64,000 nucleotides of DNA from Acidobacteriota bacterium (GTDB taxonomy: Bacteria > Acidobacteriota > Vicinamibacteria > Fen-336), in contig WYBL01000026.1 in NCBI GenBank assembly GCA_011526565.1, positions 103,928-167,927 of the forward strand, read 5' to 3'. Made by a program: the position numbers and the translations under genes. This document shows, piece after piece, positions 26,806 to 50,745 of the stretch (its first letter is position 1; every line of letters starts with the position of its first letter). Under the pieces are notes generated by a model, which was not told the origin of the DNA, did no database searches, and was given only the letters and a program-made list of their open reading frames with translations.

Positions 26806-29148
26806 TCAGGCGGTCGGCGGCGCTTCCTTTCCGGAGGCCGTCGCGCCGCGCCACAGGAAGTGGGCGAGGGCGGGCAGCAGCAGGATCGCACCGAGCATGT
26901 TGAACAGGAACAGGAAGGTCAGCAGGATGCCCATGTCGGCCTGGAACTTGAGCGGCGAGAAGATCCAGGTGGCGACGCCCATCGCCAGCGTCAGGCCGGT
27001 GAAGATCACGCCGTTGCCGGTCGTCGTGAGCGCGTCGTGGTAGGCCTGCTTCAGCGGCTCGCCGGCCTCCAGCAGCCCGGCCATGCGCCCGAACAGGTAG
27101 ATCCCGTAGTCGACGCCGATGCCCACGCCGAGCGCGGCCACCGGCAGCGTCGAGACCTTGAGTCCGATCTCGAGCACCGCCATCAGCGCGTAGGCGAGCA
27201 GCGAGACGAGCGCGAGCGGCAGCACGATGCAGACCGCGATGCGCCAGGAGCGGAAGCTCAGCAGGCACAGGGCGATCACCGCGGCGAACACGCCGCCGAG
27301 GATCGGGAACTGGGCCGCGGCCACCTCCTCGTTGGTCGCCGCCATCACCCCCAGGTTGCCGGTCGCCAGCCGGAACTTCACGTCGGGGTTGCCGTGGGAG
27401 GCCTGGTAGGCCTTCACCTCGGCGACGATGCGGTCGATCGTCTGCGCCTTGTGATCTGTGGTGAAGATCAGCACCGGCATCACGCTGCACTCGCCGTTGA
27501 GCAGGCCGGTCGAGGTGTCGACGTAGGTGACGGCCTGGGCCAGCAGCGAGGTGTCGCGCGGCAGCACCCGCCACTCCAGGCTGCCCTCGTTCCAGCCCGC
27601 GGTCAGCAGCTTGGCGACCGTCGGCAGCGCGACGACCGACTGCACGCCGGGCACGTTGCGCATCTCCCACTCGAAGCGGTCGATCACGCTCATCACCGCG
27701 TGGTCGGTGCAGGCCTGGGCCGGCACCTCGGTGATCACCGTCAGCAGGTCGACGCCGATCGAGAAGTGGCGGGTGACCACGTCGGTGTCGATGTTGTAGC
27801 GCGAGTCGGCGTGCAGCTCGGGCACGCCGGCGTGCAGGTCGCCGATCTGCACCTTGTTCGACGTCGGGTAGCCCCAGGCCAGCAGCAGCAGGGCGATGCC
27901 CGCCACGACCAGCGCCCGCCGCCGCTCGGTCAGCCGCGACAGCGCGTGCCACAGCGGGTCGACGTGGGCGTGACGGCGCTTGAGCTGGAGCAGGTAGATC
28001 TCGTCGTGGTGGACCCACGACAGCAGCAGCGGGACCAGCAGCATGTTGATGATCAGGATCATCGCCACGCCGAGCGAGGCCGTGATCGCCATCTCGCGGA
28101 TCATCTGGATGTCGATCAGCAGGATGGTCACGAAGCCGATGCAGTCGGTCAGCAGCGCGACGCTGCCCGGCACCAGCAGCTTGCGGAACGCCGCGCGGGC
28201 CGCCGGTTCTCCCGTGTGGCCCAGCCAGAACTCGGCGCGGTGCACGCTGATCATCTGCACGCCGTGGCTGACGCCCACGGCGAACACCAGGAACGGGACC
28301 AGGATCGACATCGGGTCGATCCCGTAGCCGAGCAGCGGCAGCAGGCCCAGCGTCCACACCACGGCGGTCACGGAGGAGACCAGCGGGATCACGGTCAGCG
28401 CGATCGACTGCGAGTAGACGAACACGAACACCGCGGTCACGAAGAAGGCGATCGCGAAGAACAGCACGACCCGCCGCGCCCCGGACGCGATGTCGCCGAT
28501 CACCTTGGCGAAGCCCAGGATGTGGTAGTCGAAGGCGACGCCGACGCCGTTCGTCGAGTGCTTCAGGCGGATCGCCTCGAGCTGGTCGGCGACGTGGATG
28601 TAGTCGAGCCGGGCGCCGGTGCGCGGGTCGATCTCGAGCAGCTCGGCGCTGACCAGGGCCGCGGTGAAGTCGTTGGCGACCAGGCGGCCGACGTAGCCCG
28701 ACTTGAGCACGTTGCGCCGTACCTTGGCCAGGCCCTCGGCCGTCGGCTCGAAGTCGGCCGGCACCACGTTGCCGCCCGAGATGCCGTCCTCGACGACCTC
28801 CGTGAAGCGCACGTTGGGGGTGAACAGCGAGGAGACCCGCGCGCGGTCGACGCCGGGAATGAAGAACACGTCGTCGGTGACGGACTTGAGCGTCGCGAAG
28901 AACTGGGGCGTGAAGATGTCGCCCTCGCGCACCTTGAGCGCGATCAGCACGCGGTTGGCGCCGCCGAACTCGTCGCGGTACTGCATGTACGTTCGCATGT
29001 ACTCGTGCTGCAGCGGCAGCAGCTTGGCGAAGCCCGCGTCGACGCGCAGCCGCGAGGCGCTGGCGCCGAGCAGCACGGTGACCACGGCAAACAGCACGAG
29101 CACCAGCCGGCGGTGACCGAAGAGGAAGTTCTCGAGCCGGGCCTTCAT
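26806..29148 (-). CDS. MMPL/RND-superfamily exporter (SSD-containing; HpnN/MmpL-like)
   Basis: It has twelve-TM architecture with two large periplasmic loops. The conserved GxxxD/VSHGVQM-type regions are present. The RND-like C-terminal half is FPILGGVFAAVIALCLL... ATG at 29148. Confidence 0.85.
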   Translation of the reverse strand: MKARLENFLFGHRRLVLVLFAVVTVLLGASASRLRVDAGFAKLLPLQHEYMRTYMQYRDEFGGANRVLIALKVREGDIFTPQFFATLKSVTDDVFFIPGVDRARVSSLFTPNVRFTEVVEDGISGGNVVPADFEPTAEGLAKVRRNVLKSGYVGRLVANDFTAALVSAELLEIDPRTGARLDYIHVADQLEAIRLKHSTNGVGVAFDYHILGFAKVIGDIASGARRVVLFFAIAFFVTAVFVFVYSQSIALTVIPLVSSVTAVVWTLGLLPLLGYGIDPMSILVPFLVFAVGVSHGVQMISVHRAEFWLGHTGEPAARAAFRKLLVPGSVALLTDCIGFVTILLIDIQMIREMAITASLGVAMILIINMLLVPLLLSWVHHDEIYLLQLKRRHAHVDPLWHALSRLTERRRALVVAGIALLLLAWGYPTSNKVQIGDLHAGVPELHADSRYNIDTDVVTRHFSIGVDLLTVITEVPAQACTDHAVMSVIDRFEWEMRNVPGVQSVVALPTVAKLLTAGWNEGSLEWRVLPRDTSLLAQAVTYVDTSTGLLNGECSVMPVLIFTTDHKAQTIDRIVAEVKAYQASHGNPDVKFRLATGNLGVMAATNEEVAAAQFPILGGVFAAVIALCLLSFRSWRIAVCIVLPLALVSLLAYALMAVLEIGLKVSTLPVAALGVGIGVDYGIYLFGRMAGLLEAGEPLKQAYHDALTTTGNGVIFTGLTLAMGVATWIFSPLKFQADMGILLTFLFLFNMLGAILLLPALAHFLWRGATASGKEAPPTA

Positions 29149-30101
29149 CGCGTCCCCTCCGCCGCGGCCACGTCGGCCGCCGCCAGCTTGCGCACGCCGA
29201 ACTCGCCGCATTGCGCCAGACCGCCGTCAGGGGTCGGGGCCATCGCCTGGACCCCGAGGCGGTCTGGCCGCGCGTGCAGGGTGAAGGTGCGCCCGCCGTC
29301 GCTGCTGACGAGGACGACGCCAGCCAGTCCGGCCATCACGAGGCGGCCGTCCTTCAGCCGGGCCGCGCTGGTCAGCATGGTGTCGACGCCCGTCTCGAGC
29401 GGCGTCCAGGAGCGGCCGCCGTCGGGCGAACTGAGCGCGTGGCCACGCAGCCCGAAGAGCAGCAGCGCGTCGCCGTCGAGCGGCAGGGTGCCGAACAGCG
29501 AGCCCTCGTAGGGGACTGCCAGCTCGCGCCAGGTGGCGCCCTGGTCGTCGGAGCGCAGCAGCAGGCCTCCTTCGCCGGCGAGGTACAGGGCGCCGGAGGC
29601 GGCGCGCGAGACGTGGTGGTAGTGGGCGTCCGACTCGGTGATCGGCCGCGGCGCCCAGGTCGCGCCGCCGTCGGCCGACTCCAGGAAGCTGCCGTAGGCG
29701 CCGACCGCGAAGGCCCGCGCCGGGTCGACGAAGAAGACGTCGAAGAGCGGGGCGTCGGCCTCGGCGTCGACGTGGACCCGCTCCCACTTCAGGCCGCCGT
29801 CGGTCGTGCGCAGGATCGTCGAGTCGTGGCCGACGGCGAGTCCCAGCTTCGCGTCGGCGAAGGCGACGCCCGTGAGCAGCGCGGTGGTGGGAACCACGAC
29901 CTGACGCCAGTGTGCGCCCTGGTCGTCGGAGAGCAGCACGTGCCCGCGCTCGCCGACGGCCACCAGCCGCGAGCCCGCGGCCTCGACGTCGAGCAGCAGC
30001 GACCTGTCGGCGAGCGGCCGGAGGACGGAGGACTCGTCTGCCATGGCGGAGCTGGCGAGCGCGAGGGTGAGGGCGGCGGCGAGGCGGGCGGCCTTCTCCA
30101 T
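29145..30101 (-). CDS. Ycf48/BNR-repeat beta-propeller protein (photosystem II assembly factor-like) commonly paired with MMPL exporters
   Basis: It has a signal peptide. There are repeated SxDxGxTW BNR motifs (SDDQGAHW, TTDGGLKW, SADGGATW, SDDQGATW, SPDGGRSW, SSDGGRTF). Confidence 0.8.
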   Translation of the reverse strand: MEKAARLAAALTLALASSAMADESSVLRPLADRSLLLDVEAAGSRLVAVGERGHVLLSDDQGAHWRQVVVPTTALLTGVAFADAKLGLAVGHDSTILRTTDGGLKWERVHVDAEADAPLFDVFFVDPARAFAVGAYGSFLESADGGATWAPRPITESDAHYHHVSRAASGALYLAGEGGLLLRSDDQGATWRELAVPYEGSLFGTLPLDGDALLLFGLRGHALSSPDGGRSWTPLETGVDTMLTSAARLKDGRLVMAGLAGVVLVSSDGGRTFTLHARPDRLGVQAMAPTPDGGLAQCGEFGVRKLAAADVAAAEGTR

Positions 30102-30182
30102 GGAGCCTCCGGCGAGGGCGATGTGGCGGGGAGGGAGGGGCGGCCGGGCCCGCGGCGGGGCCCGGCCGGAACGGAGGAACGG

Positions 30183-31544
30183 CTAGCGGACGCCCTCGCG
30201 GCGCAGCGCGTCGGGGGCGAAGTCGGCCTCGACGATCTTCGCGCTGAAGTCGAAGGGGACCGTCTCGTTGGACAGGCCGTAGGCCAGGTACCGGCCAGCC
30301 TGCAGGTCGGTGTGGACCTCGGCCGTCACCCAGGTCAGCGGCACCTCGTAGTAGTTGAGGGCGAAGCCCTCGGACAGCCGCCAGAGCTGGTCGCGGTTGT
30401 CGTACTGGTCGACGGCCAGGATCTGCCACGAGTCCTCGTCGACGTAGAACGTGCGGCGCTTGTAGATGTGGCGCGCGCCTTCCTTCAGCGTCGCGTCGAC
30501 CACCCACACGCGGTGCAGCTCGTAGCGCAGGTGCTCCGGGTTGACGTGCAGCGGGGTCAGGATGTCCTTGTACTTCAGCTTGCCGCTGTGCAGCTTGTAG
30601 GAGTTGTAGGGGACGTACATCTCCTTCTTGCCGACCAGCTTCCAGTCGTAGCGGTCGACGCCGCCGTTGAACATGTCGAGGTTGTCCGAGGTGCGCATGC
30701 CGTCCGACGCCGTGCCCGGGTTGTCGTACGCGACGTTGGGGGCGCGGCGCACGCGGCGCTGGCCGGGGTTGTAGACCCAGGCGTCGCGCGGCTGCTTGAT
30801 CTGGTTGAGGGTCTCGTGCACCAGCAGGATGCCGCCCGCCAGCCGCGCCGGCGCCTGCACCTTCTGGCGGAACAGCAGGATGCGGTTCTTCACCGACGCC
30901 TCGGTCGCGTTCTTCTGCGAGTAGGGCGAGTAGAAGTCCTCCTCGAACTCGACCAGCGTGTAGTTCCCGCCGCGGGTCGGCGCCGCCTGCACGAACTGCC
31001 GCCGGGCGGCCTCGCCGCGGTAGCGCAACAGGTGGTTCCAGATCGGGTGCAGGCCCTCCTTCGGCACCGGGAACGGGATGCCGATCACGGAGTTCTCGAC
31101 CGCGTTGCCGTTGGGGCCGAGCTTGGCGGTGGCCGCCGTCTTCTTCGTGGCGTCGTAGATCCGCTGCGGGGCCGAGGCGCTGCGCCGCGTCGGGTACACG
31201 TTCATCTTGTAGCTGGGGTAGGCCTTCAGCAGCGCCTTGTGGCCCTCGGTCAGCTTCGCCGCGTACTGGTCCATGTTGGCTGCCGTGATCGTGAACTTCA
31301 CGGCGTCGGCGGCGAACGGGTCGACGTGGCGCATGCCCGGCTTGTAGCCGGCCGGCGCCTTGGTGATCCCGCCGTCCCAGGCCGGGATGCTGCCGTCGGC
31401 GTTGCCGGCCTTCTCGCCGCCCATCGGCGTCAGGTCGTTGCCCAGGCGGGCGACGTCGGAAGGCGCGAGCTGCGCCGTGCCGAGGCCGGCCAGCGCCAGC
31501 GCCAGCGCCCCGACCACCAGGGAGTTCTTGGCTCGCATGGTCAT
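30183..31544 (-). CDS. DUF1329-family protein (outer-membrane lipoprotein-sorting-like; LolA-like fold)
   Basis: It has a signal peptide and characteristic family composition. It is in conserved synteny with DUF1302, BNR and MMPL. Confidence 0.7.
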   Translation of the reverse strand: MTMRAKNSLVVGALALALAGLGTAQLAPSDVARLGNDLTPMGGEKAGNADGSIPAWDGGITKAPAGYKPGMRHVDPFAADAVKFTITAANMDQYAAKLTEGHKALLKAYPSYKMNVYPTRRSASAPQRIYDATKKTAATAKLGPNGNAVENSVIGIPFPVPKEGLHPIWNHLLRYRGEAARRQFVQAAPTRGGNYTLVEFEEDFYSPYSQKNATEASVKNRILLFRQKVQAPARLAGGILLVHETLNQIKQPRDAWVYNPGQRRVRRAPNVAYDNPGTASDGMRTSDNLDMFNGGVDRYDWKLVGKKEMYVPYNSYKLHSGKLKYKDILTPLHVNPEHLRYELHRVWVVDATLKEGARHIYKRRTFYVDEDSWQILAVDQYDNRDQLWRLSEGFALNYYEVPLTWVTAEVHTDLQAGRYLAYGLSNETVPFDFSAKIVEADFAPDALRREGVR

Positions 31545-31558
31545 CTGTCCTTTCGCAC

Positions 31559-33457
31559 TCAGAAGGAGAACTTGACGTTGGTCGCGAGGAAGTCGCGATC
31601 CGCGATCAGGTTGTAGCGCCCGGCGCCGCTGAACGCCGTGTAGCTGACGTCGAACTCCCAGTTGATCTTGTAGTTCGCCGTCAGGCCGACGGTCAGCGCC
31701 TTGCGGCCCTCCAGGAAGTTGCCGCCGGGGCCGGGCGAGACGCCCTTCACGTCGTGGGCCCACGAGAAGCGCGGGATCAGGTTCACCGAGCTGAAGGCGT
31801 TGTTGTACTCGAGGCGGCCGGCCACGACGTAGCCCCAGGACGTGGCGTCGGGGAAAGCCGACTCCGGCTCGGTACCGGGCTGCACGCCCGCCTGCTGGTG
31901 GATCGCGTTGCCCGAGGTGTACGTGCCCGGGCCGTCGAGGCGCAGCGTCGACTTGTCCGGCATGTCGTGGACGGTGCTGACCGCGCCCTCCGCAACCAGC
32001 GTCGCCTGGTCGGCGCCGAGCAGGTTGGCGAAGATCTTGGTCGCGGTCATCTGGTACTGGGTGGTGTCGAAGCGGCGGTAGCCCTCGATCACGACAGGGT
32101 TGGTCGCGGTGCTGAACTCGTAGCCGCCGAGCTGGCCGGTCTGGGCCAGCAGGCCGCCGACCTGGGCGAGCCGCACGAAGCTGGGGATCGTGATCCGTCG
32201 CAACGGGGTCAGCGCGGCGTAGAGCAGCTCGAGGTCGTCGACCTGCAGCGGCACGTCCTTGCGGTGGGCGACCTCGCCCTGCAGCGCGATGCCGGTGCGC
32301 CCGAGCTGGGTGTTGAAGCTGGCGCCGAAGAGCTTGATGTCCTCGGGGTAGCTCTGGAAGTAGCGGGCCGAGGCGGCGTAGTTGAGGCCCGGGGCGACGC
32401 CGCCCGGGGTGCCCGGCGGCAGCACCGCGCCGAACTGGCCGGTCACCGCGTTGATGAGCGGCAGCCGCGAGTGGTAGTTGATGAAGTACAGGCCGAACTC
32501 GGTGCCGCCGAGCGAGTCGACGAAGAAGCGCATCGCCGCGCCGTACTGACCCTGGTCGTCCGCCTCGAGGTCCGCCTGGCGGCGCACGACGAAGCCGATC
32601 GGGTTGGTCGGCACCGGAGCGATCGCGATCTGGTCGGGCACCGCGCCGAAGCCCAGCATCACGCGCTCGCCGCCGCGGCCGGCGAGGTCGGAGGTCGAGA
32701 AGTAGGTGCCCGACGGGTCGATGATCGTCGGCTCCCACTCGAACTGGTAGAAGCCTTCGAGCGAGATGGCCTTGGTGAGCCCGATCGAGGTCCACGCGAT
32801 GCCCACCGGCAGCAGGCCTTCGCGCAGCTCGGAGCCGGGCACGCGCAGGGCGCTGACGTCGATCGGGTTGATCACGTTGATGCCGTTCTGGATGAAGGTG
32901 CTCTCGCCCCAGCTCACCACCTGGCGGCCGACGCGCAGCTCGACCGGCACGCTGCCGAGGTCGAAGCCCGCGAACGCGAAGGCGTCGCGCAGCTCGATGC
33001 GGGTGCCGACCCGGTCGAGCGCGTCTTCGCTCAGCGGGGTGCGGGCGCGGTCACCTTCCTCGTTTTCGTAGTCGTAGTAGGCGAAGCCGCGGACGAAGGC
33101 GCCGAAGCGCTTCTTGTAGCGCAGCTCGGCCTCGCTGGTGGCCTTCAGGGCGTTGCTGTAGATGCCCTTGTCGTAGTTCAGGTTGCCGTCGTCCCCGTTC
33201 ACCGAGAAGGCACGACCGCCGTTGGTCAGGCCCACGATGTCGAGGTTGCGTTCGGCCATGCGGAAGGCGAGCCCGTAGGACACGGTCGTGTCCCAGCGGA
33301 ACTCGAGTTCGCTCGGTTGTTCGGAGCGTGGCTCTTCGGCGGGTTCCGCGTCCTGGGCCAGCGCGGTCCCTGCCGCCAGCGGCAGGATCGCGATCCCGAG
33401 GACGAGCCCGCGGAAGGCCGCGGCGTTGGTCCAAGACGACGCCCAGGTCATGCGCAT
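31559..33457 (-). CDS. DUF1302-family outer-membrane beta-barrel-like protein
   Basis: Signal peptide. It is aromatic-rich and ends ...NVKFSF (C-terminal Phe typical of outer-membrane beta-barrels). Synteny as above. Confidence 0.7.
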   Translation of the reverse strand: MRMTWASSWTNAAAFRGLVLGIAILPLAAGTALAQDAEPAEEPRSEQPSELEFRWDTTVSYGLAFRMAERNLDIVGLTNGGRAFSVNGDDGNLNYDKGIYSNALKATSEAELRYKKRFGAFVRGFAYYDYENEEGDRARTPLSEDALDRVGTRIELRDAFAFAGFDLGSVPVELRVGRQVVSWGESTFIQNGINVINPIDVSALRVPGSELREGLLPVGIAWTSIGLTKAISLEGFYQFEWEPTIIDPSGTYFSTSDLAGRGGERVMLGFGAVPDQIAIAPVPTNPIGFVVRRQADLEADDQGQYGAAMRFFVDSLGGTEFGLYFINYHSRLPLINAVTGQFGAVLPPGTPGGVAPGLNYAASARYFQSYPEDIKLFGASFNTQLGRTGIALQGEVAHRKDVPLQVDDLELLYAALTPLRRITIPSFVRLAQVGGLLAQTGQLGGYEFSTATNPVVIEGYRRFDTTQYQMTATKIFANLLGADQATLVAEGAVSTVHDMPDKSTLRLDGPGTYTSGNAIHQQAGVQPGTEPESAFPDATSWGYVVAGRLEYNNAFSSVNLIPRFSWAHDVKGVSPGPGGNFLEGRKALTVGLTANYKINWEFDVSYTAFSGAGRYNLIADRDFLATNVKFSF

Positions 33458-33734
33458 GAATCCCCCTTGTCGAACGGCTGTCGAGGCAATAGCCAAGGCT
33501 ATGCCAGAACCGAGCCACCCCGCGAGCCGGCCACCGACGCGTTCTCCGGCAATCCGTTCGCGGCCGCGCACGGACTGCGCCCGTCTTTTCGTGACGCGAT
33601 GCGTTATGCGGGGTCTCCCTGACGGTTCGTTCAGGGACTCTTCAGCGGCATGGATTCGGTCGGCCGCCGATCTTCCCGGACAGGCAAGGCCTCGGCCTGC
33701 GTTCGTGTGGCTTCGGGGTCTGGCAGGAGGAGCA

Positions 33735-34661
33735 ATGCGACATCATGAACATCGTCGGCGCTGGGCCGTGGGCCTCGCGCTGGCGGGCTGCCTGGCCTGG
33801 ATCACGGCGGCGACCGCCGCCAAGCCCCCGGAGAAGGCCGTGGACTGGCCCGGTTTCAACCCCGCGTTCGCGGGCGCCACCTACGTCGACGACGTCTCCA
33901 CGTGCGCGACCTGCCACGAGGACGCCGTCAAGGGCTTCGGTTCGACCCACCACGCCCGTGCGCTGGCCCAGGGCAAGGCCGAGGCGAACCAGTGCGAGAG
34001 CTGCCACGGCCCGCGGAGCAAGCACGTCGAGAACCCCGGCGACGAGCTGGCGTTCGACAAGCTGACCACGCCCCAGCAGTCCGCCGTCTGTCTCCAGTGC
34101 CACCAGGGCGGGACCCGGATGGGCTGGAAGGCCGGCGCCCACCACCGCGGCGACGTGAGCTGCACGTCGTGCCACGACGTGATGGCCAAGCGCAGCGACC
34201 GCGCGCTGCTGACGAAAGCCAGCGCGACCGACACCTGCTACCAGTGCCACGCCGACGTGCGCGGCGACATGAGCAAGCCTTCGCACCACCCCGTGCGCGA
34301 GGGCGCGATGGACTGCGCGAGCTGCCACAACGTGCACGGCTCCAAGCCGGGCCTGCTGGTGAAGAACACGCTCAACGAAACCTGCACCACCTGCCACGCC
34401 GAGAAGCGCGGGCCGTTCCTGTGGGAGCACGCGCCGGTGCGCGAGAGCTGCGCCAACTGCCACGAGGCGCACGGCTCGGCCAACCGCAACCTGCTCACGA
34501 TCAAGGACTCGTTCCTGTGCCTGAGCTGCCACTCCTACGGCGGCCACATCAACCTGCCGCGCTACAACCGCACCAACAACCCGCTCGGGTCCGGGTGCGT
34601 GAACTGCCACATCGCGACCCACGGATCGAACCACCCGTCGGGCGCCAAGCAGATGCGGTAA
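33735..34661 (+). CDS. mtrA: Periplasmic decaheme c-type cytochrome, MtrA/DmsE/MtoA/PioA family
   Basis: Ten CxxCH motifs: CATCH, CESCH, CLQCH, CTSCH, CYQCH, CASCH, CTTCH, CANCH, CLSCH, CVNCH. Size about 308 aa. Signal peptide. GGAGGAG Shine-Dalgarno before the ATG. Confidence 0.85.
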   Translation: MRHHEHRRRWAVGLALAGCLAWITAATAAKPPEKAVDWPGFNPAFAGATYVDDVSTCATCHEDAVKGFGSTHHARALAQGKAEANQCESCHGPRSKHVENPGDELAFDKLTTPQQSAVCLQCHQGGTRMGWKAGAHHRGDVSCTSCHDVMAKRSDRALLTKASATDTCYQCHADVRGDMSKPSHHPVREGAMDCASCHNVHGSKPGLLVKNTLNETCTTCHAEKRGPFLWEHAPVRESCANCHEAHGSANRNLLTIKDSFLCLSCHSYGGHINLPRYNRTNNPLGSGCVNCHIATHGSNHPSGAKQMR

Positions 34662-34671
34662 GGGAGGCACC

Positions 34672-37104
34672 ATGAACCCGATCATCCGAATCGCCCTCTC
34701 CGCCCTGCTGCTGGCTCCCCTCTGCGCCGTCGCGGAGGACGCCCCGGCCCAGGTCTCGGGCACGGTCAGCACCGGCGCCCGGGCTGTCGACAACGACACC
34801 AACTCGTCGAAGTTCACCGAGTACCGCGACCTCGACGACCAGGTGTTCGTGCCGCGGCTCACGCTCGACGTGTTCGATCCGAAGACGCGCCGGTACTTCG
34901 AGTTCGCCGGCCAGAACGTCAGCCTTGCCGACCAGCGGCTGTTCGGCCGCGTCGGCGAGCTCGATCGCTGGAAGGCCAGCGTCGACTGGGTCGACGTGCC
35001 GCACAACTTCAGCAACAAGGCGCAGACGCCGTACCTGCGCCGCGGCCCGGGCCTGCTCGAGGTGCCGTCGAACGTCGGCATCACCTTCAAGAAGCTGGCG
35101 ACGGCGGCGGCGGACGCGCCGGGCGTCCTGGCCTCGGACCTGCTGATCGCCGCCTACCAGGCGGGCGCTCTCGGCCCCACGCCGCTGGCGACGCAGAACG
35201 CGTTCGGCCGCCTGGCCTTCGAGTACTCCGCCGTCGACGACCTCAAGCTCGGCGTCCAGTACGACCGCCGCGGCCGCGAGGGCCTCAAGGTCGGCTACGG
35301 CCCGATCGGCGACCGGCCGCCGCGCACGCTCGGCGTGCAGCTCCCGGAACCCGTCGACCACCTGAACCAGGACCTGACGCTGTCGGCCGAGTGGGCGCGT
35401 GACCGCTTCCAGGCCCAGCTCAGCTACGTCTACTCCGACTTCGCGAACGCGATCGACACCCTGACCTGGGAGAACCTGTACGCGAGCCAGGCCCCGGGTG
35501 CGACGACCGACGTCTGGGACCGCGCGGTCTCGACCTACGGCCGCCGCCCGCTGGCCCCGGACAACCGCTCGCACACCGTCCAGGCCGCGTTCTCGGTCGA
35601 GCTGCCGAAGGACAGCCTGCTCAGCGCGACGCTCGCCTACGGCCGCCTCGAGCAGGACCAGGAGCTGCTGCCGTACAGCTACAACTCCGACGTTCTGGCC
35701 AACCGCACGCTGCCACGCTCGTCGGCCGAGGCGCAGATGACCACCGTCCAGGCGCTGGTCGACTACGTCGTCGCGCTCGGCTCGCGCGCCGACCTGCGCG
35801 CGTACGTGCGCCACTTCGAGCTCGAGAACGAGACGCCCGAAGCGCGGTGGCAGTACGTGACCTCCGACACGCCCAACCTCAACGGCACCGTCTCGTTCAA
35901 GAACCAGCGCGTCAACCTGGCTTACGCCCAGGACCGCACCAGCGCTGGCGCGACGGCGACCTTCCGCCTCGAGAGCGCGTGGAACGGCAGCCTGGGTCTC
36001 GGCTATGCGTGGGATTCGGTCGACCGCGACTACCGCGAGGCCGACACCGACGAGCACAGCTTCGTCGCCACCTTCCGGGCGCGGCCCGCGAAGTGGGCGC
36101 GCCTGCGCGCCAGCTACACGTACGGCCAGCGCGACGGCGACTACGACCCGTTCGTGACGCGGCAGAGCTACTGGTACCCGCAGTCGGCGGCAACCGACCT
36201 CGACAACCCCGCGCTCTCCTTCAGCAACCACCCGGACATGGTCCGCTACGACGTGTCCGACCGGCTGCGGCATCGGGCCGAGGCCTCGCTGAGCCTGGCC
36301 CCGAAGGACACCTGGTCGCTGACCGGCAGCGTGCGCTACACGAAGGACGACTTCGACTCCGAGGTGCAGCCGTGGGTGGCGAACGTCGGCCAGATCGGCG
36401 CCACCTCGCCGGGCGACCAGCTCGGCCTGCTCGAGCAGCAGTCCCTGCGCTTCGCCCTCGACGGCGTCTGGATGCCGACCGAGCGCGCGACCCTGAACGC
36501 GTTCGTGAGCTGGAACGCCGGCGCCAGCCTCCAGCGTTCGCTGGAGTACAACGAGAACAACAAGCTGAATCCGAGCACGGTGGCCACGGCGGAGCTGGGT
36601 CCCTGGACCCGCGCCTCCAGCCAGTGGACGGCCGACTTCGACGACGTCGCGTTGACGGCCGGCCTCGGCGCGGAGTTCAAGCTGCGCGACCGGGTGACGC
36701 TCAGCGCCCACTACACCGCCTCGATCACGGACATCGAGCTGCTGTATTCGGGCTACGGTGTCACCAACTGGGACGGCACGCCGTATCCGGCCAACCACCA
36801 GTTCGGGTTCCCGCAGAACCCGCCGGTGATCAACCAGGACTGGCATGTCGTCGACGTCCGCCTCGAGTTCCCCGTGATCCGGGACCTGATGGCCACCGTC
36901 GGCTACGGGTACGAGCGCTACCGCACCGACGACTGGCAGCAGTCGGCGGGCCAGTCGTGGTCCGAATCGGTCGGCAGCGAGTTCCTGGTCCGCGACTCGT
37001 CCCGCTCCCACCAGTGGGGCAACCGGTTCTTCAACCTCGGCAGCTACCTGGCGCCGAGCTACGACGCCCACGTCGCGTGGGCGGCGTTCACCTACCGCTT
37101 CTAG
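34672..37104 (+). CDS. mtrB: MtrB/PioB-family outer-membrane beta-barrel porin of a porin-cytochrome conduit
   Basis: It is 810 aa with a signal peptide and alternating amphipathic strands. The C-terminus is ...AWAAFTYRF. It lies immediately downstream of the decaheme gene (10-nt gap with GGGAGG). Confidence 0.8.
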   Translation: MNPIIRIALSALLLAPLCAVAEDAPAQVSGTVSTGARAVDNDTNSSKFTEYRDLDDQVFVPRLTLDVFDPKTRRYFEFAGQNVSLADQRLFGRVGELDRWKASVDWVDVPHNFSNKAQTPYLRRGPGLLEVPSNVGITFKKLATAAADAPGVLASDLLIAAYQAGALGPTPLATQNAFGRLAFEYSAVDDLKLGVQYDRRGREGLKVGYGPIGDRPPRTLGVQLPEPVDHLNQDLTLSAEWARDRFQAQLSYVYSDFANAIDTLTWENLYASQAPGATTDVWDRAVSTYGRRPLAPDNRSHTVQAAFSVELPKDSLLSATLAYGRLEQDQELLPYSYNSDVLANRTLPRSSAEAQMTTVQALVDYVVALGSRADLRAYVRHFELENETPEARWQYVTSDTPNLNGTVSFKNQRVNLAYAQDRTSAGATATFRLESAWNGSLGLGYAWDSVDRDYREADTDEHSFVATFRARPAKWARLRASYTYGQRDGDYDPFVTRQSYWYPQSAATDLDNPALSFSNHPDMVRYDVSDRLRHRAEASLSLAPKDTWSLTGSVRYTKDDFDSEVQPWVANVGQIGATSPGDQLGLLEQQSLRFALDGVWMPTERATLNAFVSWNAGASLQRSLEYNENNKLNPSTVATAELGPWTRASSQWTADFDDVALTAGLGAEFKLRDRVTLSAHYTASITDIELLYSGYGVTNWDGTPYPANHQFGFPQNPPVINQDWHVVDVRLEFPVIRDLMATVGYGYERYRTDDWQQSAGQSWSESVGSEFLVRDSSRSHQWGNRFFNLGSYLAPSYDAHVAWAAFTYRF

Positions 37105-37180
37105 AGCTTCCAGCGGGCGTCGGCCGCCAGAGGCCGGCGCCCGCATCCAAGGCCTGATCGTCCTTTCCGGTGGTGTTCCG

Positions 37181-37229
37181 GGCCGGAGCAGTCTCGCGGG
37201 TCGAGGGCCCCGCGCGACCCGCTCCGGCC
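37181..37229 (+). terminator. Strong nested GC hairpin between mtrB-like and the response regulator. It is a candidate terminator/attenuator with no U-tract.
   Basis: The hairpin is GGCCGGAGC-agtctc-GCGGGTCG-agggccccg-CGACCCGC-TCCGGCC. Confidence 0.35.
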
Positions 37230-37252
37230 CTCCTTTCGGGGAGCGGCCGGGT

Positions 37253-37984
37253 ATGCTCGAGCGCAACGAGATCGAGATGGCCGAGCCCGCCCCCGCCCGC
37301 ATCCTCGTCGTCGAAGACGAGCCGAAGGTCGCCGAGGCCCTGGGGGCCGGGCTCCGCGACGCGGGCTTCGCGATCGACGTGGCCCACGACGGCGAGGAGG
37401 GGTTCTTCCTGGCCGCGTCCGAGAGCTTCGACGCGATCGTGCTCGACCGCGTCCTGCCCGGCCGTGACGGCCTCTCGATCCTGGCCGCGCTGCGCCGCAA
37501 GGGCGTGCTGGTGCCCGTGCTGGTGCTGACCGCGCTGGACGGCGTGGACGAGCGGGTCGCGGGCCTCGAGGCCGGCGCCGACGACTACCTCGCCAAGCCG
37601 TTCGCCTTTCCCGAGCTGGTGGCGCGCCTGAAGGCGCTGCTGCGGCGCGGCCGCGGCGACAACCTGCTCCAGCTCGCCGTGGCCGACCTCAGGATCGCCG
37701 TCGCGCGTCGCGAGGTGACCCGGGCGGATCGGCTAATCGAGCTGACGCCCCGCGAGTACGAGCTGCTCGAGTACCTCGTGCGGCACCGCGGCCAGATCGT
37801 CTCCCGCGAGATGCTGGCCCGCGACGTGTGGAAAGAGACCCAGCGCGGCACGCCACTCGACAACGTGATCGACGTCCACGTCACCCGCCTGCGAAAGAAG
37901 ATCGACCAGGGCTTCGAGCCGCGCCTGATCCACACCGTGCGCGGGGTCGGCTTCCTGCTCGGGCCCCAGGGAGACGGCGCCTGA
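37253..37984 (+). CDS. OmpR/PhoB-family two-component response regulator (alternative start at 37277)
   Basis: The receiver is ILVVEDEPKVAEAL...IVLDRVLPGRDGL...LVLTALDG. The winged-helix output is TPREYELLEYLVRHRGQIVSRE...VRGVGFLL. Confidence 0.85.
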   Translation: MLERNEIEMAEPAPARILVVEDEPKVAEALGAGLRDAGFAIDVAHDGEEGFFLAASESFDAIVLDRVLPGRDGLSILAALRRKGVLVPVLVLTALDGVDERVAGLEAGADDYLAKPFAFPELVARLKALLRRGRGDNLLQLAVADLRIAVARREVTRADRLIELTPREYELLEYLVRHRGQIVSREMLARDVWKETQRGTPLDNVIDVHVTRLRKKIDQGFEPRLIHTVRGVGFLLGPQGDGA

Positions 37985-39378
37985 AGCGCGTCGGCTCGCT
38001 GCGCCGGCGCCTCACCCTCCACTACACTGGGGTGCTGGGCCTGACGCTGGCACTCTACGGGGCAGGCACCTGGGCGCTGCTCCGTTCCCATGCCCGCGAC
38101 GAGCTCGACCACCGGCTCGAGGAGGACCTCGGTCGCGCCGTGCGCGGCGCCGCGGTGGCGGCCGACGGCACGGTCTGGTGGCGCAACCCCGCGGAGTTCG
38201 CGCGGCGCACGTCCGACCCCAGCCGCGGCCACTGGGCCGAGATCTGGAGCGGCGAAGGACGGCTGTTGCTGGACGGGGCGACGAGCCAGCCGCTCGAACT
38301 GGGACCGGTCCCGTCGACCCACGAGTTGCACGCCGAGCCCCGGAGTCGCCGGATCGACGGGCGCCGGGTGCGCGTGATGGCGCGGCTGCAGCCGATCGAC
38401 GGCCAGCTCTTCGCCGTCCGTGTCGCCATCTCCGAAGAGCCGATGCACCACCGGCTCGGCGACCTGCTCAAGGGGCTGGCGGCCGCGTTCCCCCTGATGC
38501 TGGGCCTGGCCGCGCTGGGCGGCCGCGCGGTGCTGGGCCGGGCCCTGGCCCCGCTGGCGGAGATGGCGCGCCGCGCCCACCGCATCAGCGCCGAGCGGCT
38601 GTCCGATCGGCTGGCGGTCCCGGAGGACGGCGGCGAGCTCGCGCAGCTCGCTGCGGCCTTCAACGAGGCGTTCGCCCGGCTCGAGCAGTCGTTCGGCCAG
38701 TTGCAGCGCTTCACTGCCGACGCCTCGCACGAGCTGCGCACGCCGCTCACGGCGCTGCGCAGCGTCGGCGAGGTGGGCCTGGCCCCGGGCAAGTCCGCCG
38801 CGGAGTACCGCGAGGTCGTGGCCTCGATGCTGGAGGAAGCGGACCGGCTCACGCGGCTGGTCGACGCGCTGCTCCAGTTGTCGCGGGCGGAAGCGGGGCG
38901 CCTGGCGTTGCACGTGGAGCGGCTCGACCTCGGGGCGCTGGCCTGCGACGTCGCCCAGCAGCTCGCGGTGCTGGCCGAGGAGCGCGGCCAGCAGCTCGCC
39001 TGCGATTCCTGCGCGCGGGCCGAGATCGACGGCGACCGGGTCGTGCTGCGGATGGCCGTGATGAACCTGATCGACAATGCGATCAAGTACGGGCGGGTCG
39101 GCGGCCGCGTGGAACTTGCCACGACCACGCGCGACGACGGGGCGATCGATGTCGCCATTCGCGACGACGGCCCCGGGATCTCCCCCGAACACCACGAGCG
39201 CGTGTTCGACCGCTTCTTCCGCGTCGATCGCGACCGCGCCCGGGTGCCGGGCGGGGCGGGCCTCGGCCTGGCGCTGGCGCGCTGGGCCGCCGAAGCCCAC
39301 GGCGGGCGCATCGAGCTGGAGAGCACGCCCGGGGCGGGCAGCACGTTCCGCCTGGTGCTGCCCGCCGCCGCGCGCTGA
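37981..39378 (+). CDS. Sensor histidine kinase (HisKA plus HATPase_c). The start is uncertain: CTG at 37981 or GTG near 38028.
   Basis: H-box FTADASHELRTPLTAL. N-box NLIDNAIKY. G-boxes DDGPGI and GGAGLGLAL. Confidence 0.8.
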   Translation: MKRVGSLRRRLTLHYTGVLGLTLALYGAGTWALLRSHARDELDHRLEEDLGRAVRGAAVAADGTVWWRNPAEFARRTSDPSRGHWAEIWSGEGRLLLDGATSQPLELGPVPSTHELHAEPRSRRIDGRRVRVMARLQPIDGQLFAVRVAISEEPMHHRLGDLLKGLAAAFPLMLGLAALGGRAVLGRALAPLAEMARRAHRISAERLSDRLAVPEDGGELAQLAAAFNEAFARLEQSFGQLQRFTADASHELRTPLTALRSVGEVGLAPGKSAAEYREVVASMLEEADRLTRLVDALLQLSRAEAGRLALHVERLDLGALACDVAQQLAVLAEERGQQLACDSCARAEIDGDRVVLRMAVMNLIDNAIKYGRVGGRVELATTTRDDGAIDVAIRDDGPGISPEHHERVFDRFFRVDRDRARVPGGAGLGLALARWAAEAHGGRIELESTPGAGSTFRLVLPAAAR

Positions 39379-39382
39379 GCCG

Positions 39383-39748
39383 TCAGGCCTTGCGGCGGGC
39401 CTCCACGAAGGAGCGCACGCACAGGATCACGAACACGAGGCACAGCGCCGCCGTCAGCGACTGGCCGGCGACCGCTGCGGGGCGCGCGAGCGGCTCGCCG
39501 GAGAGCAGGGCGGGCAGCTGAGCCAGGCCGCGGGCCGACCCGAGGAAGCCGAGCAGGCCGAGCGCGGCCGCGCCGTGCATCGCGTGGCGGCGCAGGTTCT
39601 CGCGCGTCGCGAGGCCGCCGAGCAGGGCCAACGGCAGGCCGATGAAGGCGGGGATCAGGGCGGTGACGCTGGCGGCGCCGGTTCCGACGTAGAAACCGAC
39701 GCCGACCAGGACGAGCAGGGAGCCGAAGACGATCGCGATCCGGGGCAT
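39383..39748 (-). CDS. Small integral membrane protein (4 predicted TM helices), hypothetical
   Basis: MPRIAIVFGSLLVLVGVGFYVG...LIPAFIGLPLALLGGLA...AALGLLGFLG...LCLVFVILCV. ATG at 39748. Confidence 0.55.
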   Translation of the reverse strand: MPRIAIVFGSLLVLVGVGFYVGTGAASVTALIPAFIGLPLALLGGLATRENLRRHAMHGAAALGLLGFLGSARGLAQLPALLSGEPLARPAAVAGQSLTAALCLVFVILCVRSFVEARRKA

Positions 39749-39758
39749 GGCGGCAAGT

Positions 39759-41990
39759 CTACCGGGCGGCGCCCAGGAGCGTCTCCGCGGTGAACGCGTA
39801 CATCTGCTGCCGCATGTGCCACAGCAGCTTCGGGTCGGTGACACCGTGGCGCGACTTCGGGTACAGCATCAGCCGGAACGGCTTGCCGGCCTTCTGCAGC
39901 TCCCACGCGAACTGCATCGTGTTGGCGGGGTGCACGTTGTCGTCGAGCGCGCCGTGGATCAGCAGCAGCTCGCCGTGGAGGTCCTTCGCGGCCGCCCGCG
40001 GCGCGGTGCGCGCGTAGCCGTCGGGGTTGTTGGCCGGCGTCTTCATGTAGCGCTCGGTGTAGACCGAGTCGTAGTTGCGCCAGTCGGTGACCGAGCCGCC
40101 GGCGATACCCATCGCGAAGCTCTTCGAGTGGGTGAGCGCGTAGCTGACCATGAACCCGCCGTAGCTCCAGCCGTTGATGCCGATCCGCGCGGCGTCGACC
40201 CACGGCTGCTGCTTCAGGAACGCGATCCCGTCCTCGACGTCGGCCAGTTCCGTCTCGCCCAGCCGCAGGTAGCCGTGCCACGCCGACTGCGCGCCCTTGC
40301 CCGAGGCCGTGCGGTTGTCGCAGACCCAGACGACGATGCCCTGCTGGGCCAGGAACTGGCTGTACATGAACGACGTCCCGCCCCAGGCGTCGCGCACCTG
40401 CGGCGCGTGCGGACCGCCGTAGGTGAGCTGGAACACCGGGTACTTCTTCGCCGGGTCGAAGTCGGGCGGCTTGACCAGCATCGCCTCCATCTCGAACCCG
40501 TCGCGGGTCTTCACCTTCAGCAGCTCGGGCTTGCCGATCCGGAACTGCGCCAGGGCCTTCACCTCGTTGCCGTCGATCAGCCGCACCAGCTTGCCGTCCG
40601 CCGTGTGGAGCCGGACCTGGGTGGGCGTCGTGAGGTCGCTCCACGAGTCGACGTAGTGGGTGAAGCCGGGGTTGAAGGTCGCCGAGTGGGTGCCGGGTGT
40701 CTCGCTGAGGCGGCGCCGGCCGCTGCCGTCGAGCTTCACCGCGTAGACGTCGCTGCCGATCGGGCTGCGCTCGGTGCCCGAGAAGTAGACGAGCCCGGCC
40801 TTCTCGTCGACGCCGTGCAGCGTGCGCGCCTCCCACTCGCCCGTGGTCACGGCGCGGACGAGCGTCGCGTCCTTCGCGTAGTGGTAGAGGTGCTTGAAGC
40901 CGCTGCGCTCCGAGAACCACAGGAAGCCGCCGTCCTGAAGCCAGTGCGGCGCGCCCTGCGGCTCGACCCACGCCTTCGTGGTCTCGCGCAGCAGCACCTT
41001 CGTCTCGCCGCGCGTGCTCGCGGTCGCCAGGTCGAGCCAGGTCTGCTCGCGGTCCTGGACCTGGAACCCGACGCGGTCGGAGGCCGGCGCCCACGACACC
41101 TCGACGATCAGGATCTCGGAGGTGCCCCAGCGCCCGAGGTCGGCGAAGACCGGCGCACCGCCCGCGGCCGAAACGATGCCGAGCTTCACGCCCGGGTTCG
41201 GGTCACCGGCCTTGGGGTACGGCCACTGCTCGACGTCGGGGCGGTAGGCCATGTCGTCGACCAGCGTGAAGCGCGGCACCGCGTGCTCGTCGAGGCGCAG
41301 GAAGGCGAGCCGCGCCGAGTCCGGGCTCCACCAGTACGCGCGGCGCTGGCCGCGGCCGTAGATCTCCTCCTCGTAGACCCAGTCGAACTCGCCGTTCAGC
41401 ACGTTCGCCGAGCCGTCGGTGGTCAGCCGCCGCTCGCGCGCCGTCTCCACGTCGACGACGTGCAGGTCGTGCTCGCGCACGAAGGCGACGCTGCGGGCGT
41501 CGGGGCTGAAGCTGGCGAGGATCTCCTCGCCGGGCGTCGCGGTCAGCCGCACCAGTCGATCGCTGCCGAACCGCCACAGCCACAGGTCGCGGGCGAACGA
41601 GACGAGCGCGAGCTGGCGCGCCGGGTCCTTGACCAGGCCGCGCGAGCGGGCCAGCCGCTTCGCCTCGTCCGCGCCCGCACCCGGCACACGCGCGATGGCG
41701 GCGGTCAGCTTCGCGCTGTCGAACAGCGGCTCCTCGCGGCCGGTGGCCACGTCCACCTTGCGCCACTCGCCCCCGCTCGCGCGGCGCTCGCCGCCCGTCG
41801 GCGCGTCCGCCTTGAAGTAGACGTACGCGCGGTCGTCGAGCCACTCGACGCCCGACACGGGCTGCCCGGCGAAGTCGAGCTTCTTCTCGGGGTGGTACAG
41901 GTCCTCGAGCGTGAGCGGTCGCTGCTGCGCGAGGGCGGGGACGGAGAGGGTCGCGGCCAGCGCCGCGGCGGCGAACGGGGAGAATCGCAA
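39759..41990 (-). CDS. Dipeptidyl-peptidase IV-like S9B serine peptidase (beta-propeller plus alpha/beta-hydrolase)
   Basis: The DPP-IV N-terminal propeller has SPDSARLAF...EEEIYGR. The catalytic GWSYGG nucleophile motif is INGWSYGGFMVSYAL. Signal peptide. Confidence 0.85.
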   Translation of the reverse strand: MRFSPFAAAALAATLSVPALAQQRPLTLEDLYHPEKKLDFAGQPVSGVEWLDDRAYVYFKADAPTGGERRASGGEWRKVDVATGREEPLFDSAKLTAAIARVPGAGADEAKRLARSRGLVKDPARQLALVSFARDLWLWRFGSDRLVRLTATPGEEILASFSPDARSVAFVREHDLHVVDVETARERRLTTDGSANVLNGEFDWVYEEEIYGRGQRRAYWWSPDSARLAFLRLDEHAVPRFTLVDDMAYRPDVEQWPYPKAGDPNPGVKLGIVSAAGGAPVFADLGRWGTSEILIVEVSWAPASDRVGFQVQDREQTWLDLATASTRGETKVLLRETTKAWVEPQGAPHWLQDGGFLWFSERSGFKHLYHYAKDATLVRAVTTGEWEARTLHGVDEKAGLVYFSGTERSPIGSDVYAVKLDGSGRRRLSETPGTHSATFNPGFTHYVDSWSDLTTPTQVRLHTADGKLVRLIDGNEVKALAQFRIGKPELLKVKTRDGFEMEAMLVKPPDFDPAKKYPVFQLTYGGPHAPQVRDAWGGTSFMYSQFLAQQGIVVWVCDNRTASGKGAQSAWHGYLRLGETELADVEDGIAFLKQQPWVDAARIGINGWSYGGFMVSYALTHSKSFAMGIAGGSVTDWRNYDSVYTERYMKTPANNPDGYARTAPRAAAKDLHGELLLIHGALDDNVHPANTMQFAWELQKAGKPFRLMLYPKSRHGVTDPKLLWHMRQQMYAFTAETLLGAAR

Positions 41991-46237: not shown

Positions 46238-46325
46238 CGGAATGGTCCCCGTGTCCCGCCACTGCGGGAATGACGATGCCAAAGGTCATTCTCTTCGGGC
46301 TCCAGTGCTCGCGACATGACCGCCG

Positions 46326-46832
46326 TCATGTCGCCACAGCCCCAGCCGACCCGAGCAGGCGCAAGGCACGCAGGTAGACGTCGCCCTGGACCCGGACCTG
46401 CAGGTCGCGCACGACCCATCGCCCGTCCCGCGCCAGGCTCCACAGCAACGCGGCGAGGTAGGGGCCGGTCGCACATTGGCGCGAACGCAACCACCAGCCG
46501 GCCAACTCGAACATCGGGCAGCCTCGGACGTGGCCGCGCGTGGCCTCAGTGGCCTCGTCGAGCGCCCGCTCCACCGCCGCGGCCACCGATCCGGGCTGCC
46601 TGCACCGCTCGACGAGGGCGGCCACCGCCGCGTCCTCCCGCGCCGCTTCCGGGGACTCCTCGAGTTCGAGCAAGCGCGCGACCGTGGACGACTCCAGCAG
46701 CACCCCCACTGCCAGGAACACGGCATCGGTCTCGATCTCCCAGATGCGGCGTGGGGCTTCCGGGGGATCTCTCCTGTCGTCGTCGCGCACGTGTGCGTCC
46801 TTTGGGTCGATCGGCCTCCGGTCGAACAACAT
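46326..46832 (-). CDS. Hypothetical protein (168 aa)
   Basis: MLFDRRPIDPKDAHVRDDDRRD...ELAGWWLRSRQCATGPYLAALLWSLARDGRWVV is non-repetitive. There is no family call. It sits between two confidently called genes. Confidence 0.35.
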   Translation of the reverse strand: MLFDRRPIDPKDAHVRDDDRRDPPEAPRRIWEIETDAVFLAVGVLLESSTVARLLELEESPEAAREDAAVAALVERCRQPGSVAAAVERALDEATEATRGHVRGCPMFELAGWWLRSRQCATGPYLAALLWSLARDGRWVVRDLQVRVQGDVYLRALRLLGSAGAVAT

Positions 46833-46873
46833 CGCTTCTCCCTGTCTCTGGACCCGCGCTGCCTCGCGGCGCC

Positions 46874-48366: not shown

Positions 48367-48367
48367 C

Positions 48368-50740: not shown

Positions 50741-50745
50741 CGCGC

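Follow-up and report, generated by a model that had tools for sequence, protein, structure and literature searches.

A decahaem cytochrome gene followed at once by the gene of an outer-membrane porin, with no gene for an extracellular cytochrome beside them, raises the question of what such a pair conducts, in which direction, and under what control. The case considered here lies at positions 33735-39378 of a 64,000-nucleotide stretch of DNA (referred to throughout as the window; G+C about 73%) from an Acidobacteriota bacterium, probably a soil dweller, of the class Vicinamibacteria, lineage Fen-336 (assembly GCA_011526565.1, contig WYBL01000026.1, positions 103,928 to 167,927 of the forward strand), and it comprises four genes on one strand, namely those of the cytochrome, the porin, a response regulator, and a histidine kinase. 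The reading that we favour, with a confidence somewhat better than even, is that the locus encodes a trans-outer-membrane electron conduit of the MtoAB/PioAB type, controlled by the adjacent two-component system of the CusRS/CopRS family, and that, of the two directions, an inward flow of electrons is to be preferred.

The conduit itself is an ordinary member of the known MtoAB/PioAB family, and its proteins are already named correctly by automated pipelines. Homologues of PioA and PioB in Acidobacteria have been mentioned in passing by surveys (PMC10654088), and a large survey of MtrCAB systems required MtrC, so that it leaves out the clade discussed here (PMC8805035). A literature search, thin on subscription journals, returned no report in which a two-component system or a regulator of the CopR/CusR type is connected with conduits of the MtoAB type, and none on MtoA in Vicinamibacteria. 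What is new, as far as we found, is a module of four genes with its operator, together with a regulon in outline.

The decahaem cytochrome and its porin

The first gene of the pair (33735-34661, plus strand) is preceded by a ribosome-binding site, AGGAGGAG, 5 nt ahead of its ATG, and encodes a c-type cytochrome of 308 residues that belongs to the MtrA/MtoA/DmsE family. Our count agrees with that of an earlier note on this DNA, made from the sequence alone: there are exactly ten CxxCH motifs, at residues 57, 87, 119, 143, 168, 194, 217, 239, 262, and 288. The protein passes the cut-off of the DmsE/MtrA-family profile that the note had proposed to run, TIGR03508 (247.8 bits against 192.2), whose title, "DmsE family decaheme c-type cytochrome", is also the name given to the cytochrome in IMG. 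Its alignment to MtrA of the Shewanella baltica MtrCAB complex (PDB 6R2Q, chain A) has 40% identity (E=6e-55) and covers all ten haem sites. In an alignment of 66 sequences, made of the window protein, 64 relatives, and MtrA, all ten CxxCH motifs are invariant, and ten further histidines (73, 97, 136, 185, 201, 232, 246, 271, 296, and 300) are invariant or nearly so, each of them being a histidine in MtrA as well, which is what bis-His ligation of ten haems would require. Ahead of haem 1, the whole clade shares a conserved N-terminal motif, (V/I)DWxxLNPAFxGAxFV. As a point of bookkeeping, chain A of 6R2Q appeared in the sequence-search table under the name "Cystathionine beta-synthase", a labelling artefact that could mislead automated annotation.

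Judged by inspection, the cytochrome has a Sec-type signal peptide, with an RRR stretch, a hydrophobic core, and an ATA|AK cleavage site (full sequence MRHHEHRRRWAVGLALAGCLAWITAATA|AK), and it is thus predicted to be exported to the periplasm via Sec. The signal peptide (33735-33830) also contains a lipobox-like LAGC, and we considered whether the cytochrome might be a lipoprotein. Besides the window, only two related loci, L008 and L056, have the cysteine in question, and about 60 other orthologues lack it; since it is not conserved, an ordinary Sec signal is more likely.

The TAA stop of the cytochrome gene (34659-34661) is followed by 10 nt, GGGAGGCACC (ribosome-binding site), and then by the ATG, at 34672, of the second gene (34672-37104, plus strand), which encodes an outer-membrane porin of the MtrB/MtoB/PioB family with 810 residues. 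The same 308- and 810-residue products come from independent gene calls on identical public contigs, so that both these calls and the coordinates confirm the barrel gene placed by the earlier note 10 nt downstream. The signal peptide of the barrel ends in LCAVA|ED and contains the only cysteine of the protein; hence, the mature barrel has no cysteine and no N-terminal CXXC. Its C-terminus, FTYRF, ends in phenylalanine. The match to PF11854 (MtrB_PioB) scores 291.7 bits and spans positions 2-635 of the 635 in the profile. Twenty homologues went into an AlphaFold model, in which 26 long strands are seen and the long loops all emerge on the same face; when this model was compared with the PDB by Foldseek, the top match was MtrB (6r2q_B; E=1.2e-27, TM-score 0.75 normalized to the target, 18% identity), followed by 22-strand TonB-dependent receptors at E=1.9e-10 and weaker. 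Three motifs of the barrel are invariant, GPIGDRPPR (residues 210-218), HPD (520-522), and RDSSRSHQWGNR (774-785), and in the model they fall in predicted long loops of low confidence, where they could be elements of a cytochrome contact or of a surface site. The TIGR03508 pass, the full-length PF11854 match, and the 26-strand MtrB-like fold support the MtoAB/PioAB-type arrangement that the earlier note had proposed.

Regarding partner proteins, a six-frame scan of the 64 kb finds no open reading frame (ORF) with two or more CxxCH motifs other than the cytochrome itself, and only one with a single motif (39667-40014, plus strand), which is antisense to a dipeptidyl peptidase IV (DPP-IV) gene. 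There is consequently no gene of the MtrC/OmcA type anywhere in the window, not even just beyond the context to which the earlier note was confined. Its statement that no MtrC/OmcA-type gene and no gene resembling CymA or a high-potential iron-sulfur protein (HiPIP) lies within 5 kb also holds: the 5 kb around the conduit contain no HiPIP-like and no NapC/CymA-like gene, and the conduit neighbourhood contains no ORF of the NapC/NrfH, monohaem, MtoD-like, or HiPIP-like kind.

The pair is not peculiar to this genome. An exhaustive search among 1.84 billion representatives returned 1,429 clusters of barrel homologues at E<=1e-3 and 136 at E<=1e-30, and homologues above 50% identity are numerous in metagenomes, where most are labelled Acidobacteria. 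A scan of one genome per species gave 74 related loci, the nearest in metagenome-assembled genomes (MAGs) of Vicinamibacteria at 76% protein identity, and the remoter ones in Gemmatimonadota, Thermoanaerobaculia, Desulfobacterota, Ignavibacteriales/Bacteroidota, and Elusimicrobiota. The pairing is present in 64 of these loci, the cytochrome gene precedes the barrel gene without exception, and most loci have no other multihaem ORF within 10 kb. As most relatives share it, a two-gene conduit standing by itself is characteristic of the clade and no accident of one genome. Two loci have a richer layout: one Vicinamibacterales MAG (L011, 8652-19851) carries three tandem decahaem-barrel pairs, and one Gemmatimonadetes MAG (L033, 6607-11350) has ORFs with 9, 17, and 11 haems 3-7 kb downstream of the pair.

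The same survey bears on one rival explanation. In Shewanella, the pair DmsEF serves the DMSO (dimethyl sulfoxide) reductase DmsAB, and the genes considered here might, by analogy, feed a non-haem terminal oxidoreductase outside the cell, whose gene would lie at another place in the genome. The best curated family of the cytochrome is indeed named after DmsE, and an architecture without MtrC would be compatible with this role. However, neither a molybdoenzyme nor any other secreted oxidoreductase is encoded next to the pair, and none is a conserved neighbour across the 74 related loci; we regard the explanation as highly improbable.

Among the known conduits, MtoAB of Sideroxydans lithotrophicus ES-1, a proposed Fe(II)-oxidizing system, likewise consists of a decahaem gene followed by a porin gene, with no MtrC. 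MtoA has 317 residues against 308 here (PMC3274759), a likeness of size and layout and not one of direct sequence comparison, and the barrel exceeds Shewanella MtrB by about 110 residues, as MtoB and PioB are reported to do (PMC3274759). The mto cluster differs in having cymA/mtoC and mtoD beside mtoAB (PMC3274759, PMC8805035), whereas here neither occurs in the 64 kb and a CusRS-like system with an operator is found instead. The PioAB(C) system of Rhodopseudomonas palustris TIE-1, which acts in phototrophic Fe(II) oxidation and electron uptake, is also a two-protein conduit without an outer cytochrome, and PioB belongs to, and gave its name to, the Pfam family of the barrel; PioA, however, has a long N-terminal extension and pioC, encoding a HiPIP, follows pioB (PMC10654088), whereas the present locus has a minimal cytochrome and no HiPIP. 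As for MtrCAB of Shewanella (6R2Q), the cytochrome keeps the ten haem sites and the ten distal histidines of MtrA, and MtrB superposes on the barrel model; the differences are the MtrC/OmcA component, which has no counterpart here, and the divergence of the barrel, which lacks the CXXC.

An adjacent two-component system and a candidate operator

When all ORFs flanking the 74 loci were clustered, a response regulator and a histidine kinase emerged as the only widely conserved neighbours of the conduit. In the window, the regulator gene (37253-37984, plus strand) encodes 243 residues with Response_reg and Trans_reg_C domains; its start codon context is kept in relatives, it is 48% identical to Escherichia coli CusR over the full length, and a member of its 90% cluster is labelled "CusR" in IMG. 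The designation "OmpR-type" in the earlier note thus stands as to class (OmpR/PhoB), and it can be sharpened to the CusR/CopR-like heavy-metal subfamily. The kinase gene, which ends at 39378 on the same strand, encodes a CusS/CopS-like membrane sensor with two transmembrane (TM) helices, a periplasmic sensor domain, and HAMP, HisKA, and HATPase_c domains, and this layout, TM-sensor-TM-HAMP-HisKA-HATPase, is that of the CusRS and CopRS systems of E. coli and Pseudomonas. Similarity to CusS found by BLASTP (32% identity) is confined to residues 141-464, from the second TM helix onward.

The start of the kinase gene is ambiguous, and its extent is best given as 37981..39378. Three candidate codons exist, CTG at 37981, which overlaps the regulator stop, CTG at 37999, and GTG at 38032, and the reading frame contains no ATG, GTG, or TTG between 37829 and 38031. 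The coding sequence of a conserved N-terminal segment, SLRRRLTLHY, which can be aligned with both CusS and the orthologues, begins at about 37996, and the L008 kinase has TTG at the equivalent leucine. The GTG at 38032, chosen by the gene callers, cuts into the first TM helix.

Close homologues of the regulator and kinase adjoin the conduit in 15 of the 20 informative loci of the Vicinamibacteria type, three of four labelled "Solibacteraceae", one of three from Thermoanaerobaculia, and seven of eight from Gemmatimonadota, and in none of the 14 loci from Desulfobacterota, Ignavibacteriales/Bacteroidota, Elusimicrobiota, and Schekmanbacteria. The sensor genes usually lie upstream in Acidobacteriota (order regulator-kinase-cytochrome-barrel), and downstream of the conduit in Gemmatimonadota, in the window, and in its nearest relatives. 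Two types of sensor domain can be told apart: those of the Acidobacteriota type, the window kinase included, share LDH(H/R)LxED(L/M)E just past the first TM helix together with (R/H)W(V/A)E(V/I), whereas C(A/V)EC is conserved in those of the Gemmatimonadota type (L036-L041 and L075) and missing from the former.

The candidate operator (33618-33645, plus strand) reads CCTGAC-GGTTCG-TTCAGG-gactc-TTCAG and is centred about 108 nt upstream of the cytochrome ATG, in the spacer of 277 bp (33458-33734) that separates this gene from a divergent DUF1302 gene, if the ATG at 33457 chosen by the gene callers is taken as the start of the latter. In this spacer, the earlier note had reported imperfect inverted repeats. 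Two do exist, of which only that at 33618-33635 is meaningful; the palindrome at 33549-33578, like a terminator-like hairpin at 33566-33580, is not conserved in L056 or L008. When the spacer is aligned with those of relatives at about 76% identity, the best-conserved block besides the ribosome-binding site is TCCCTGA-N8-TCAGGGACTCTTCAG, and it is kept even in L008, which has a different upstream gene. Across loci, the pattern is CCTGAAC-N4-GTTCAGG-(a/g)(a/t)CTC-TTCAG, that is, an inverted pair followed by a direct TTCAG repeat, with a spacing of 11 bp. The core pattern occurs once in the 64 kb, against 0.01 occurrences expected.

Sites were scored with a 29-nt leave-one-out weight matrix; the window operator receives 24.6 bits, and the runner-up in the window -3.7 bits. 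The sensor system of the Acidobacteriota type is present in 24 loci, three of which were not used in building the matrix, and every one of them has an operator of 24.6-50.4 bits 76-204 nt upstream of the cytochrome gene, and in the loci without that system there is none (0 of 38; best upstream score <=5.7 bits). Two further loci, L035 and L056, also carry the operator on truncated contigs that are unable to show the sensor system; L056 comes from the same MAG as L018, which has the regulator genes. Where the order is regulator-kinase-cytochrome-barrel, a second strong operator stands upstream of the regulator gene, which fits the expectation for autoregulation. The window and L008, in which the conduit genes come first, have a single operator, which points to read-through from the conduit promoter into the regulator genes.

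A different box is found in the loci of Gemmatimonadota and in one labelled Bacteriovoracaceae, where T(G/T)ACA-N5-GTAAT precedes the cytochrome gene by 97-252 nt. This pattern has seven sites in 0.85 Mb, of which six are so placed (L036, L038-L041, and L049). The box matches the consensus of Pseudomonas aeruginosa CopR, CTGACAn5GTAAT, and is close to the CusR and PcoR palindromes quoted in the same work; regulators of the CopR type bind palindrome-based sites at their own and their target promoters (PMC11195947). Two boxes in two phyla, each paired with its own sensor type, are in our view a strong argument, drawn from comparative genomics, that these regulators act directly on the conduit genes. 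The window operator shares with the CopR box a palindrome-based design and the similar half-site CTGAC (PMC11195947), and it differs in its second half-site, TTCAGG instead of GTAAT, and in having a third, direct-repeat half-site. Moreover, the targets of CusRS and CopRS are an efflux pump or a multicopper oxidase, whereas the target here would be an electron conduit.

Regarding the promoter, a scan for the sigma-70 consensus found none. A hexamer GATCTT at 33669-33674 (plus strand), 23 nt past the third half-site, may tentatively be taken as a -10 element: most related loci have a -10-like TAGACT or TACACT about 22 nt after the third half-site, and the window, L008, and L056 share a conserved block, GCCGAT(C/T)(C/T)TC, at this position. 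In the spacer between the barrel and regulator genes (37105-37252), two strong GC-rich hairpins are predicted (z=-3.8). The first (37113-37144, plus strand) lies just after the barrel stop codon, with a 13-bp stem and no U-tract, and could be a partial terminator or an mRNA stabilizer between the conduit and regulator genes, although its role is uncertain because it is absent from L008 and L018. A possible second operator in the same spacer, CCTGAT-N6-TTCCGG-N5-TTCCG at 37153-37180, has the same spacing and was rejected: matches with two mismatches number seven against 4.6 expected, the segment is absent from L008 and L018, and no site in the window other than the main operator exceeds -3.7 bits.

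Operator-linked genes and the function of the conduit

The operator allows the question of function to be approached from its other occurrences. An exact-pattern scan of metagenome contigs returned at least 120 stretches (L083-L202), for which the bases that follow each match provide an internal control, as the TCAG that completes the third half-site lies outside the query. This TCAG is present in 49 of the 65 matches listed in contigs of at least 57% G+C, and in none of the 55 in contigs of lower G+C. Among the matches listed, the 49 complete operators precede at least ten outer-membrane proteins with a CarboxypepD_reg domain, a weak OprB-like match, and methionine-rich MPxMP repeats, which makes this protein the commonest product encoded after the operator in these soil contigs. 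They also precede at least six cytochrome c'-like monohaem proteins, at least five small monohaem cytochromes c, at least four TonB-dependent receptors, at least four proteins resembling PepSY_TM or cytochrome b561, at least four multihaem cytochromes, one of which (L140) has an MtrA-like N-terminal motif, and at least three DUF6152 proteins, in addition to DUF6644 and a histidine-rich protein. Examples of genes so preceded are L103:6518-8182, L149:3639-4328, L099:521-799, L188:914-2434, and L177:2751-3200. Judging from these downstream genes, the operator family is associated with metal and redox proteins of the envelope, and the small operator-linked cytochromes are candidate periplasmic partners for the conduit. 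The genes need not all answer to one sensor, as several paralogous regulators may share the box.

In the scheme that we propose, the decahaem cytochrome would be threaded through the 26-strand porin as in 6R2Q, with its last haem exposed at the cell surface. The membrane kinase would respond to a signal in the periplasm, the likeliest being a metal ion or a redox cue tied to a metal, and phosphorylate the regulator, which would then bind the operator at 33618-33645 and activate the promoter just downstream; the regulator genes themselves would probably be expressed, at least in part, by read-through from the cytochrome promoter. The conduit would pass electrons between a metal substrate outside the cell and periplasmic carriers whose genes lie elsewhere. 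In the inward direction, an extracellular reduced metal such as Fe(II) would be oxidized, as proposed for MtoAB and PioAB. That the complex forms, that the regulator acts as an activator, what kind of signal is sensed, and which way the electrons flow are inferences.

The N-terminal CXXC is typical of MtrB from metal-reducing Gammaproteobacteria. Inward flow is favoured by the absence of MtrC, by sizes like those of MtoA and MtoB, and by a barrel without this CXXC, and we offer it as a preference and not as a demonstration. The opposite direction, in which electrons would be exported to Fe(III) or Mn(IV) minerals, humics, or chelated Fe(III), either in anaerobic or microaerobic respiration or in reductive iron acquisition, with induction upon sensing the metal substrate or chelate, seems to us rather unlikely, even though several observations speak for it. 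MtrAB alone can conduct both ways, and MtoA and PioA are intermixed with MtrA in phylogenetic trees, forming no function-specific clade (PMC8805035). The TonB-dependent receptors and the PepSY_TM/cytochrome b561-like proteins that follow the operator in soil contigs, among the matches listed, are typical of metal or siderophore uptake and ferric reduction, and a cluster encoding a TonB receptor, CbiX, and a PepSY_TM protein lies 7.5 kb away in the window. However, that uptake cluster has no operator, no quinol dehydrogenase is encoded nearby, and the locus lacks both the barrel CXXC and the extracellular MtrC/OmcA-type reductase that characterized mineral reducers use.

A second alternative starts from the regulators. 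The conduit might belong to a regulon of copper or soft-metal homeostasis and serve to change the redox state of a toxic metal on or beyond the outer membrane; it might oxidize Cu(I) ahead of its entry, for instance, or make another metal insoluble by reduction, and it would have no part in energy metabolism. Methionine-rich MPxMP repeats are a hallmark of Cu(I)-binding proteins, and their carrier heads the genes found after the operator among the matches listed, where the histidine-rich protein also occurs; in addition, the regulator is close to CusR, and the best family matches of the two-component system are heavy-metal families for Cu, Ag, and Zn. The relatives in Gemmatimonadota, moreover, combine a canonical CopR-type box (PMC11195947) with C(A/V)EC kinase sensors. 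On the other hand, no gene for a multicopper oxidase, a P-type ATPase, or Cus-type efflux is found in the window or after the operator in the matches listed, and the sensor domain of the window kinase has no methionine or cysteine motif, its conserved residues being His, Asp, Glu, and Trp. The potentials reported for decahaem cytochromes of this family are low for Cu(I) oxidation. Furthermore, related Pseudomonas regulators with similar boxes answer to copper, zinc, or unknown signals (PMC11195947). We hold this explanation to be unlikely.

To return to the favoured reading, an MtoAB/PioAB-type conduit under the control of its neighbouring regulator and kinase, several points weigh against it. 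With respect to the proteins, the barrel matches PF11854, one of the MtrB/PioB profiles named in the earlier note, over its full length, though it scores 188.7 bits with the stricter NCBIfam model TIGR03509, below the cut-off of 240.05; a phmmer search of the barrel against the PDB gave no match; and the structural model has a mean predicted local distance difference test score (pLDDT) of 66.8, with high confidence for the strands and low confidence for the long loops. The best NCBIfam matches of the regulator (TIGR01387, 230.9 bits against a cut-off of 279.2) and of the kinase (TIGR01386, 281.6 bits against 292.55), both of which are families of the heavy-metal systems CztRS, SilRS, and CopRS, are likewise below threshold, though only just. 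The periplasmic sensor of the kinase has no significant similarity to that of CusS by BLASTP, and since the two domains are unlike, the signal cannot be read from homology. The operator of the window has the lowest score of its group, 24.6 bits, and the regulatory claims come from comparative genomics. As to the path of the electrons, no periplasmic or inner-membrane partner of the CymA/MtoC, MtoD, or PioC type is encoded in the 64 kb, and because trees mix oxidizing and reducing homologues, the direction of flow is not inferable from sequence (PMC8805035). On the side of the favoured reading, the suggestion in the earlier note that the adjacent two-component system controls the conduit is backed by conserved adjacency and by the conserved operator.

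Neighbouring genes and the meaning of the module

The remaining genes around the locus can be described briefly. On the minus strand, at 26806-33457, are those of an RND/MMPL (HAE3) transporter, a BNR/Ycf48-like protein, a DUF1329 (LolA-like) protein, and the divergent DUF1302 protein. A functional tie of this cluster to the conduit was considered and set aside: the adjacency is conserved only in the nearest relative, L056, so that the cluster is probably unrelated. On the other side, a gene for a small membrane protein with four TM helices (39383-39844) adjoins the kinase gene, and the genes of the DPP-IV peptidase and of a PQQ-repeat (pyrroloquinoline quinone) propeller protein are found further on. 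At 44861-50791 (minus strand), the gene of a DUF438-hemerythrin-PAS_10 protein is followed by the uptake cluster mentioned above, in which the TonB-dependent receptor has a CarboxypepD_reg domain and is accompanied by CbiX and a PepSY_TM-like protein; similar families are preceded by the operator elsewhere. An Rfam search of 33300-39600 found no known RNA.

The wider significance of the module lies in how such genes are used and in which organisms they occur. Pairs resembling MtoAB and PioAB are routinely flagged as markers of iron oxidation in metagenomes from soil and groundwater. We suggest, tentatively and as a possibility short of even likelihood, that the MtoAB-type conduits of soil Acidobacteriota and Gemmatimonadota are not stand-alone respiratory modules but belong to an envelope regulon of a metal-sensing, CusRS/CopRS-like kind, which would include methionine-rich outer-membrane proteins, TonB receptors, PepSY_TM proteins, and small periplasmic cytochromes, and in which a periplasmic metal signal would switch the conduit on to detoxify or acquire metal. 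If this were true, the "missing" periplasmic partners of the conduit should be findable by an operator scan of each genome. If the signal were copper or another toxic metal, the use of conduit genes as markers of iron cycling in surveys would need to be revisited.

Vicinamibacteria and Gemmatimonadota are abundant and mostly uncultured, and for them the conserved sensor and operator offer an experimental handle on the regulation of the conduit, comprising a promoter element, a regulator that can be purified, a sensor domain that can be titrated with metals, and a motif with which to enumerate the regulon, candidate periplasmic electron carriers included. Through the link to an operator, experiments can thus address directly how a widespread environmental marker is regulated and, possibly, what it does.

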